From a phage, in the sequence record PZ445436.1: DNA of 64,000 bases; one strand, 5' to 3'. The notes under the pieces were generated by a model. The model ran no database searches. It was not told where the DNA came from and saw nothing but the letters and a program-made list of their open reading frames with translations. Shown piece after piece: positions 53,398 through 55,335 of the stretch. The position numbers and the translations under genes are program-made. Positions within the stretch are counted from its first letter, which is position 1; every line of letters starts with the position of its first letter.

Positions 53398-53868
53398 CTA
53401 GCGATAAAAACCAAATTGACGATTAGCTTCAATAATCTTTCTTTCTTCTTCGGACATTCTCCAACGTAGTCCAACATCAAAATGAGCCCAGACCATCTTA
53501 ACAAATGCATTTATATCTTTAATATCTTCAATAATGAATGTTTTACTTTTAGAAGGTTGACTCGCTAATTTAACTTTATCGTCTTCAAACATGTCAAAAA
53601 GACCATATTCATGAGCTCTTTTATAGCCTTTAATAGTTAAAGCTTCGGAAGAAGAAAACGGTGAATCAGTATTCTGTAAAATATCTTCAGTATGCTTTAT
53701 AATTAGAATAACATTTTCTGGATATTTTCTTTCTTTTATATCTTTAATTAAAAAATCCGGATTTTCTGCTAAAGGAATAATTAATGAGCATTTTTTATCA
53801 AGTGTATTTACTGATTTACCTTCTTTGGACATAAATTCTATTGAATATAATTTTGCTACTTCAATCAT
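53398..53868 (-). CDS. hypothetical protein
   Basis: 156-aa ORF. Confidence 0.5.
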
Positions 53869-54025: not shown

Positions 54026-54225
54026 GATTTATCACCATAGATGTCTCTCATCAATTTAAGCGCTGAGAGTTCTAATTTCTTTTCTTTCTCAGCACTAATC
54101 ATTGATTTCATCCATTCTTCCGATTCGTTCTGCATTTCTTTATTTGCTTGTTCAACCCAACCATCATCAATATACATTGAGTTTGGTCTATTGAACCATT
54201 CAAGAATCTTCTTGAGAGCTTTCAT
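54022..54225 (-). CDS. hypothetical protein
   Basis: 67-aa ORF. Confidence 0.45.
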
Positions 54226-54685
54226 TTATTTTACCTAAAACGATAGTATGGACACCGTCAAATTCATGAATTTTTAGCAAATTTGGATTTAAATTATTCC
54301 ATAAAGAGGTAATAAAATATGATAGCGCACTTTCGTCCGTAATTATAAATTTATTTCCCTTATCAATTTTCCAGTCATATATTGAATCATATGAATAGAA
54401 GGATAACGGTTTATTATTATAGTATGCTTCAGCAACATCAATATAGTTAGATTTAGTAAATGCTTGAATTGCCATAAATGGAGAATTTTGTACAGTTTCA
54501 ATAATTCCGATCTTTTTAAGTTTTATTTCAACATCTTCTGGAACTGGCATTGAAATAAAATCTTCTACTAGATACATGTCATTGTCATATCTTTTATCAA
54601 TCATTACTGCTACTGTAATTGGAACATCCTTGACAAACGCCATATTAATACTATTGATAGACATTTCAAACAAAATCGCTTCCAT
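54200..54685 (-). CDS. hypothetical protein
   Basis: about 161 aa from internal ATG ([11 protein letters not shown]...); track start is a TTG. Confidence 0.45.
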
Positions 54686-54693
54686 AATTTTCC

Positions 54694-55035
54694 TCAATCG
54701 CAAGATGTAGATGAACAACTAGAATCACAAGAACTTCCACATGAATCGCCCGTCCATACATGAACAGGAACATTGGTGTCATATGAATCAGAACTAGACT
54801 GTGTATTCTGTGCATTAGATGATGTAGTAGGTACTGACCAGCGCCAAGGATTTTTATAATATTCTTGGGCTTCTTCATAAGTCATAGTAACTGCTTCTAC
54901 TGTTCCATCTCCCATATAAACATATTCAACTACAGTTAAAGGAAGATAGTCATTTGAAATAGGAACTACACCTTCTCCCGGAGTTGTAGAGAAAAAATCT
55001 GTAAAGAAATTTTTAAACAAATTAAAGATAAACAT
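54694..55035 (-). CDS. hypothetical protein with Cys/Ser-rich C-terminal tail
   Basis: 113 aa ending [18 protein letters not shown]. Confidence 0.5.
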
Positions 55036-55241
55036 TACAAAAAGCCTCTTTTGAATTCGACTTGCTTCTCACCATAATCATATCGAATCTCTGCGTTAAA
55101 TTCAACAGAACCATCTGCGTACATCATAAATGAATGCACAACAACTTCTGTAGACCATGGTTGCAATTCATATTTCTTCATTACATGCCGTGAAATGATA
55201 ATATCTAAATCTTCATTTGGTTTAATCCAACGATTTAACAT
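55035..55241 (-). CDS. hypothetical protein
   Basis: 68 aa; GAGGAG SD; early promoter upstream. Confidence 0.5.
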   Translation of the reverse strand: MLNRWIKPNEDLDIIISRHVMKKYELQPWSTEVVVHSFMMYADGSVEFNAEIRYDYGEKQVEFKRGFL

Positions 55242-55267: not shown

Positions 55268-55297
55268 ATTATACCATACTCATTTTGATATGTAAAC
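55268..55297 (-). promoter_or_regulatory. T4 early-type promoter
   Basis: GTTTAC, 18 nt, TGGTATAAT. Confidence 0.65.
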
Positions 55298-55300
55298 TGC

Positions 55301-55335
55301 AAAAACGAAAAAAGGAACCCCGAAGGATTCCTTAA
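55301..55335 (-). terminator. rho-independent terminator after soc
   Basis: GGAAUCC-UUCG-GGGUUCC then UUUUUUCGUUUUUG. Confidence 0.7.

Follow-up and report, generated by a model that had tools for sequence, protein, structure and literature searches.

A serine- and cysteine-rich C-terminal tail in Mrh.1, a DUF7206 protein of T4-like phages

Introduction

To our knowledge, T4 is the best-studied lytic phage, and about half of its genes, mrh.1 included, are without known function. A small open reading frame in a 64 000-nucleotide stretch of phage DNA (record PZ445436.1; the whole stretch is termed the window here) raises a question about one such gene, as the predicted protein ends in a low-complexity run of serines, aspartates and cysteines. 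A sequence-only reading of the window had compared this ending with metal-binding or precursor-peptide-like tails rather than with a folded domain. Here the identity of the gene, the evidence for selection on the tail and the possible roles of the tail are considered.

Results

Identity of the open reading frame

The window was identified as Tequatrovirus DNA by sequence comparison, and the open reading frame was present on the minus strand as had been claimed, with an ATG start and 113 codons before the stop. The predicted protein matched Pfam PF23836 (DUF7206) with 101 bits against a gathering cut-off of 25.6, residues 4–113 covering positions 2–107 of the 107 in the model, and it also matched phrog_2031 (E = 1.9e-32); both are catalogued families without an assigned function. 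At the DNA level the gene was ∼90–100% identical to nearly all of 501 phage records, the copy of Escherichia phage vB_Eco_EH2 being 100% identical, and the name mrh.1 is used for the matching gene in the annotations of T4 and PP01. T4 Mrh.1 (UniProt P20706) is encoded in the same mrh.2–mrh interval, has the same length and carries a tail identical to that of the window copy; the T4 genome record is 95.3% identical to the window gene in DNA, with no difference of substance.

The family core motif, E-[YW]-V-Y-[MV]-G-D-G, is represented in the window protein by EYVYMGDG at residues 37–44, and its C-terminus has the Ser-rich tail ending C-x(4-9)-C-[D/N/E]. The position between soc/mrh.2 and mrh is typical of the family and is the same in PP01, T4 and PEi20; a DUF7206 gene lies in the same soc/mrh.2–mrh setting in the context of the Mosigvirus-type protein P0120 and in a metagenomic contig. 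That the open reading frame is the T4 mrh.1 ortholog and that its tail is under selection is, taken as a joint claim, almost certain. The gene itself is not new, nor does the window copy extend the family; the contribution made here is the definition of the S-C-D...S-C-D C-terminal motif and the evidence of selection on it. The features discussed are located in Table 1.

Table 1. Positions of mrh.1, its parts and the neighbouring features (window coordinates, except for rows that name a separate locus).
Feature	Position	Strand	Basis or remark
mrh.1 CDS	54694..55035	-	113 aa + TGA stop, ATG start; T4 Mrh.1 ortholog
N-terminal Phe-rich amphipathic helix, residues 4–15	54991..55026	-	AlphaFold helix 4–15; hydrophobic moment ∼0.4
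Conserved core, residues 34–61	54853..54936	-	Beta-hairpin around EYVYMGDG, then helix
Variable Ser/Thr/Asn/Gln-rich linker, residues 62–93	54757..54852	-	pN/pS, indels, pLDDT <50 for most
Conserved C-terminal tail, residues 94–113	54697..54756	-	Family conservation, pN/pS, predicted disorder
Tail Cys codons	54739-54741, 54727-54729, 54715-54717, 54700-54702	-	Sequence
mrh.2 (68 aa)	55035..55241	-	phrog_1873; TAA stop overlaps mrh.1 ATG by one base (TAATG)
mrh (161 aa)	54200..54685	-	Pfam T4_MRH; start 8 nt past mrh.1 stop
ModA.3 (156 aa)	53398-53868	-	Pfam T4_MRH, E = 1.9e-38; 24% BLASTP identity to window Mrh
Early-type sigma-70 promoter	55268..55296	-	TTTACA, 17 nt spacer, TG-TATAAT; heads mrh.2–mrh.1–mrh unit
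Intrinsic terminator hairpin after soc	55312..55333	-	Separates soc from mrh.2 unit
164-aa variant loci	L015 556-1050, L016 556-1050, L020 501-995		fPS-90, 235Ecol030PP, G2540-3
GTG-start mrh.1 loci	L021 500-832 (Sf23), L022 456-788 (EO1)		Sequence

Cysteine content of the tail

The interval 54694–54750, to which the tail had been assigned in the sequence-only reading, corresponds to G96 to D113 plus the TGA stop. The Cys/Ser-rich tail was found there as described, but the count of five cysteines was not correct; there are four (C99, C103, C107 and C112), separated by 3, 3 and 4 residues. A stretch of 18 residues with at least four Cys occurred in five of the 173 six-frame open reading frames of at least 60 aa in the window, and the binomial expectation was ∼1.25 such stretches. 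Among the 82 window open reading frames of at least 100 aa, mrh.1 alone had at least four Cys within 18 residues. The Cys composition of the Mrh.1 tail alone is not beyond chance, and the argument for the tail therefore rests on its conservation. Other tail-bearing paralogs were sought in the window and none were found.

Selection on the tail within Tequatrovirus

Fifteen Tequatrovirus copies were compared for tail and codon differences. The tail was constant in all of them save one Ser/Gly difference at residue 106, and the entry to the tail differed only by Thr/Ala at residue 95 and Gly/Ser at residue 96. The other DNA differences in the tail were synonymous, with TGT/TGC exchanges at three of the four Cys codons and further changes of TCA/TCG, AGT/AGC, GGC/GGT and ACG/ACT. 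Nei–Gojobori pN/pS was 0.11 for the tail (residues 94–113), 0.55 for the linker (residues 63–93) and 0.05 for the N-terminal segment (residues 1–62). Variants with lengths of 109–113 aa differed by in-frame indels, which fell in the linker only. The main Mrh.1 protein cluster has 515 member sequences, and the exceptions to an intact frame were single records: a frameshifted database protein (P0006) and a metagenomic contig with an N-terminal frameshift (L007). Absence or frameshifting of the tail in close relatives, which the sequence-only reading had named as refuting its claim, was not seen apart from these two records.

A longer form of 164 aa was found in Yersinia phage fPS-90 and in Escherichia phages 235Ecol030PP and G2540-3, and belongs to a cluster of 17. 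It carries 51 extra residues directly before the tail, which is still in frame, and the variant reads, in part, YASDDTMEEIIRQPEKAGNVG...IDTAPIITATAVSSWTGDSC. The added part resembles a second, degenerate YMGDGMMEEV hairpin together with a Dhakavirus-type middle segment, and the 113-aa T4 form looks like the 164-aa gene minus these 51 residues. The two forms suggest module duplication or recombination, followed by deletion.

Two observations concern the annotation of the gene. A GTG start was found for mrh.1 in the lineage of Shigella phage Sf23, Escherichia phage EO1 and protein P0004, and owing to the GTG start the mrh.1 of phage Sa45lw has been annotated as a 70-aa protein from an internal Met. 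A 70-aa open reading frame in an alternative frame also lies inside mrh.1 (window 54666–54878, minus strand), in the frame read by the frameshifted protein P0006; it is very likely not a gene, since the synonymous third-position changes in mrh.1 would alter it.

The tail in the wider family

Word-indexed homology searches and tblastn against phages recovered Tequatrovirus copies only, the low-complexity filter having masked the tail, and an exhaustive HMMER search followed by a profile search was therefore needed to reach other genera. These searches yielded 132 Mrh.1 family proteins, and PF23836 was present in the precomputed database domains of every listed profile-search match. Besides Tequatrovirus the family includes members from Dhakavirus (JS98), Mosigvirus (SF), Kanagawavirus (PEi20) and Muldoonvirus (PS2), and from many further contigs.

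The C-terminus C-x(4-9)-C-[D/N] was found in 104 of the 108 family proteins with the core motif, representing at least five phage genera; the four exceptions were fragments or the frameshift. The first conserved Cys was followed by Asp in 95 of the 104 tails, the last residue was Asp in 102, and a Ser stood directly before both conserved Cys in 95. The rest of the protein was free of Cys in 98 of the 104. The last 25 residues of the family proteins were composed of 42% Ser, 14% Asp, 13% Gly, 8% Cys and 8% Tyr. Across 61 diverse sequences C112 was invariant and S102, C103, S105, S111 and D113 were at least 90% conserved; in the N-terminal module Y40, G42 and G44 were invariant, and K8 and F15 nearly so. 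W94, G96 and D97, at the entry to the tail, were at least 90% conserved in a 12-sequence alignment (A1). The Ser codons in the tails of distant relatives switched between TCN and AGY, which places the constraint on the protein and not on the DNA.

A typical family tail reads WTGDSSYSSYDSGSCDSSSSSCD, with two Cys the general number, and three were present in one other lineage (ESCO47). The two extra Cys of the Tequatrovirus tails sit at positions that are Ser or Tyr elsewhere. Alignment within the low-complexity tail was ambiguous, the upstream S-C-D pairing with C107 in alignment A1 and with C103 in alignment A2; the matching S-C-D context is found at C103. As read from these alignments, two Cys are family-wide and the four-Cys arrangement is specific to Tequatrovirus.

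The DUF7206 proteins of the Dhakavirus, Mosigvirus, Kanagawavirus and Muldoonvirus types (JS98 Mrh.1, for example) share with the window protein the N-terminal helix, PGEG-VPI, the YMGDG hairpin, a hydrophobic patch, the Ser-rich tail ending S-C-D...S-C-D/E and the synteny with soc and mrh. They differ from it in having two Cys, with Tyr or Ser at the positions of the extra Cys of the T4 type, and in having another middle segment, which is charged and probably helical.

Architecture of Mrh.1

The structure of Mrh.1 was predicted with AlphaFold from a 61-sequence alignment, giving a mean pLDDT of 56 in which only the hairpin and the following helix were confident. The elements of this core were strands at residues 34–40 and 46–52 and a helix at residues 53–61 (pLDDT 70–78). 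The N-terminal helix is followed by a conserved PGEGVVPI motif. No secondary structure was predicted for residues 62–113 (pLDDT ∼45–50); this, with the high Ser content of the family tail, agrees with the earlier view that the tail is not a folded domain. A PDB profile search with Mrh.1 returned nothing significant, the best match being a capsid protein with E = 0.08.

Mrh.1 has a mass of 12.6 kDa, a pI of 4.05 and three basic residues, and neither a signal peptide nor a transmembrane segment was evident from its sequence. It is an early, cytoplasmic, acidic protein of T4-like phages, and it is made of three parts: a small conserved N-terminal module, a fast-evolving linker that tolerates indels, and a disordered tail, rich in Ser, Asp, Gly and Tyr, on which purifying selection acts. 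Two Ser-Cys-Asp units make up the conserved core of this tail, and the second of them ends the protein (...S-C-D-COOH).

Gene neighbourhood

The order of genes on the minus strand is 61, 56, two small open reading frames, soc, mrh.2, mrh.1, mrh, srh, modA.4, modA.3, modA.2, modB and modA. The promoter at the head of the mrh.2–mrh.1–mrh unit agrees with the consensus at 11 of 12 positions and has an extended -10 element; a predicted early promoter is annotated at the same position in Yersinia phage fPS-90, and a terminator is annotated at the same place after soc in fPS-90 and G2540-3. The GAGG ribosome-binding site of mrh overlaps the TGA stop of mrh.1. An RNA structure over the tail and this ribosome-binding site was considered and rejected, the folding being no better than that of shuffled sequences (z = +1.0).

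The order of a DUF7206 gene followed by a T4_MRH gene is kept in Kanagawavirus (PEi20) and in a metagenomic relative, and in the P0120 context one small open reading frame lies between the two; in all three, soc precedes the DUF7206 gene, and srh and the genes for the Mod ADP-ribosyltransferases follow it. A tblastn search with the window Mrh found no match in six IMG/VR loci (L008–L013, from ∼170-kb contigs), which include ∼1.5 kb of sequence past the DUF7206 gene; in these loci Mrh may have diverged too far to be matched, or may have been replaced. ModA.3 is a paralog of Mrh, and the early unit thus carries two genes of the Mrh family.

Mrh was more variable than the adjacent Mrh.1 within Tequatrovirus, most full-length Mrh matches being 74–88% identical to the window copy and a few 91–97%; full-length Mrh.1 matches were ∼89–94% identical to the window copy. 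The fast-evolving Mrh may be the partner in contact with a variable host factor. An AlphaFold model of Mrh, sought as a possible modifying enzyme, was unusable (pLDDT 33), and PDB sequence searches with Mrh and Mrh.2 found no relatives. Residues 34–47 of Mrh.2 read VVHSFMMYADGSVE and resemble the Mrh.1 hairpin. Paralogy of this segment (SFMMYADGSVE) with the hairpin was considered and was not supported: hhalign gave a 14-residue match with a probability of 0.2% and E = 0.25, and BLASTP gave nothing.

Expression and fitness data for T4 mrh.1

The RNA of T4 mrh.1 was classed as early in a time-course study, which detected the proteins Mrh.2, Mrh and Srh and gave Mrh.1 the protein class NA, meaning not detected (PMC9697503, supplementary file 4). 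The peptides expected from trypsin digestion of Mrh.1 are of 8, 53, 4 and 49 residues, and with peptides so few and so long the absence of Mrh.1 from the T4 proteome carries little weight. In a genome-wide CRISPRi-ART knockdown screen T4 mrh.1 was scored "Semi-Fit" (score 0.79, associated value 0.069), as one of five Semi-Fit genes of purely unknown function, and mrh.2, mrh, srh and soc were "Not Fit" (PMC11879866, supplementary files 1 and 15). One publication (PMC8076793) describes Mrh as a modulator of RpoH (sigma-32) phosphorylation that forms a very large complex. For mrh.1 and DUF7206 the literature searches brought up no functional study, the mentions being confined to supplementary tables.

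Discussion

Metal ligation as the preferred reading

Thiol chemistry is implied when a cytoplasmic protein keeps invariant cysteines and is otherwise free of Cys, and our best guess from the sequence is that the tail would be a flexible, thiol- and carboxylate-bearing stretch which ligates a metal or engages a partner. Of the explanations weighed, metal ligation is preferred; it is plausible, and we hold it tentatively. The tail would be the working end of Mrh.1, its thiols and Asp carboxylates binding a metal ion, which could be Zn2+ or an Fe or Fe-S centre. In the genera with two Cys the ligation would probably be between two chains or with a partner protein, and in proteins of the T4 type a self-sufficient Cys4 site would be possible. 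The N-terminal module might supply localisation or partner binding. Host takeover or the sigma-32 pathway is the direction suggested by the constant place of the gene directly upstream of mrh, within the early unit of mrh.2, mrh.1, mrh, srh and modA/B.

In keeping with metal ligation, a carboxylate accompanies each conserved Cys, a range of spacings is tolerated, and the copies of the T4 type have gained further Cys, at a Tyr position in one case and at a Ser beside a Tyr in the other. Against it, no metal-binding domain model was matched, Pfam returning DUF7206 only and NCBIfam nothing above cut-off. The two conserved Cys are fewer than those of a classical Cys4 or Cys3His site, there is neither a CxxC knuckle nor a His, and the Cys-to-Cys spacing is 4–9; the disorder of the tail is predicted with low confidence, so that no coordination geometry can be judged.

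Alternative roles for the tail

The tail might instead be a short linear binding motif or decoy, in which an acidic Ser/Asp/Tyr stretch, ending in ...SCD with a free carboxylate, binds to a protein of the host or the phage, whether as a mimic or as a Ser/Tyr phospho-acceptor tied to the effect of Mrh on sigma-32 phosphorylation, with the Cys serving as contacts and taking no part in metal or redox chemistry. Such a role would suit a disordered tail of low complexity whose terminal motif and Trp-x-Gly-Asp-Ser entry are both conserved, and it would suit the tight linkage to mrh, given what has been described for Mrh and RpoH and for the very large complex (PMC8076793). The presence of exactly two Cys in 101 of the 104 tails of otherwise Cys-free proteins points to thiol-specific chemistry, however, and elsewhere in the tail Ser, Gly, Asp and Tyr replace one another freely; docking is also without a known partner, and we regard it as unlikely, although it is the alternative ranked next to metal ligation.

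Thiol chemistry of another kind would be at work if the conserved Cys pair formed a redox-active dithiol, cycling between dithiol and disulfide or forming a mixed disulfide with a host protein. By analogy with the tail of ribonucleotide reductase (RNR) R1, Mrh.1 might then be a decoy or substrate for host thiol-disulfide oxidoreductases. In class Ia RNR the C-terminal Cys pair of R1 (C754 and C759 of E. coli NrdA; C-x4-C-x2-COOH) shuttles electrons from thioredoxin or glutaredoxin. The Mrh.1 pair lies likewise within a predicted disordered C-terminal tail, the last two Cys of the T4 type form C107-x4-C112-D-COOH (C-x4-C-x1-COOH), and the tolerance of spacings from 4 to 9 fits a flexible loop disulfide. 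The likeness to the RNR tail is one of pattern only. An oxidoreductase or reductase domain was found neither in the protein nor next to it, and the tail is preceded only by a module of ∼60 residues that matches no enzyme family; the R1 tail, by contrast, is part of the enzyme whose active site is re-reduced by it. Redox cycling also leaves the constant Asp after and Ser before each Cys unexplained, and it is unlikely, standing after docking in our ranking.

A bolder idea, which seems to us quite unlikely, is that S-C-D...S-C-D-COOH is the reactive end of an undescribed thiol-based phage–host interaction, either bridged by a metal or Fe-S centre or by a mixed disulfide, or else presented as a modified peptide. 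In one version Mrh.1 could form a complex with a host sigma-32 or heat-shock factor, together with Mrh; in the other it could be a ribosomal peptide modified by an unrecognised enzyme, such as proteins of the Mrh family. Either version, if true, would explain the effect that knockdown of mrh.1 has on T4 fitness.

The precursor-peptide likeness put forward in the sequence-only reading would make the tail the core peptide of a ribosomally synthesised and post-translationally modified peptide (RiPP), its Cys and Ser residues being modified to azolines or azoles, to lanthionines or to ranthipeptide-type Cys-Asp thioethers by an enzyme of the host or by one of the phage that has escaped recognition, Mrh or Mrh.2 for instance. 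The small size of the protein, its Cys/Ser/Asp-rich end and the repeated S-C-D units are compatible with this, the folds of the neighbouring Mrh and Mrh.2 are unknown, and there was a weak compositional match to the FxLD lanthipeptide precursors (TIGR04363, E = 0.034). That match was the best to any NCBIfam precursor, but its 14.1 bits fall far short of the 30 set as the curated cut-off. Domains of the YcaO, LanB/C/M and radical-SAM/SPASM kinds were absent from the neighbours examined (Mrh.2, Mrh, ModA.3 and three small open reading frames without a family match, with ModB/ModA and Soc identified by the annotation of relatives) and from the genes called in three distant relatives. The conserved N-terminal module has predicted secondary structure and is not a typical leader, and the family is confined to lytic T4-like phages, in which a secreted peptide would have no obvious role. 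On these grounds the precursor-like description was not upheld, and a RiPP-like role is highly improbable.

Finally, that the tail has no function as protein, being a low-complexity accident or a stretch kept for the sake of the nucleic acid, whether as RNA structure or as part of the mrh ribosome-binding region, is hardly credible: the Cys count alone is within chance for the window and the mrh.1 stop overlaps the GAGG site of mrh, but at least five genera retain the motif in the protein while the DNA diverges, as in the TCN/AGY exchange of Ser codons, and the tail pN/pS is low.

Our ranking thus places metal ligation first, followed by docking, redox chemistry, a RiPP-like precursor and, last, a tail without protein function.

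Comparison with known systems

Of all the features of the family, which spans at least five genera of T4-like phages, the unusual tail carries the most information. If it binds a metal or a host protein, a small new piece would be added to T4 host takeover, and nothing would be overturned.

Cys/Ser-rich core peptides are known from the precursors of several RiPP classes, among them microcin B17 and other linear azole peptides, thiopeptides, lanthipeptides and ranthipeptides (freyrasin). Like Mrh.1, these are small gene products with a Cys/Ser/Asp-rich C-terminal stretch, and the likeness is compositional. Mrh.1 differs from them in coming from a lytic phage, in belonging to no curated precursor family and in having no maturase gene among the neighbours examined.

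Unstructured termini in which a few Cys serve a metal or redox role are also known, as in the metal-binding tail of SlyD, the C-terminal zinc site of SecA and the Cys pair of class Ia RNR R1, and they offer the Mrh.1 tail a possible parallel. The Mrh.1 tail has no sequence similarity to any of these and its spacing is other than theirs. It differs from them also in lacking His and CxxC, and it presents only two conserved Cys, each followed by Asp.
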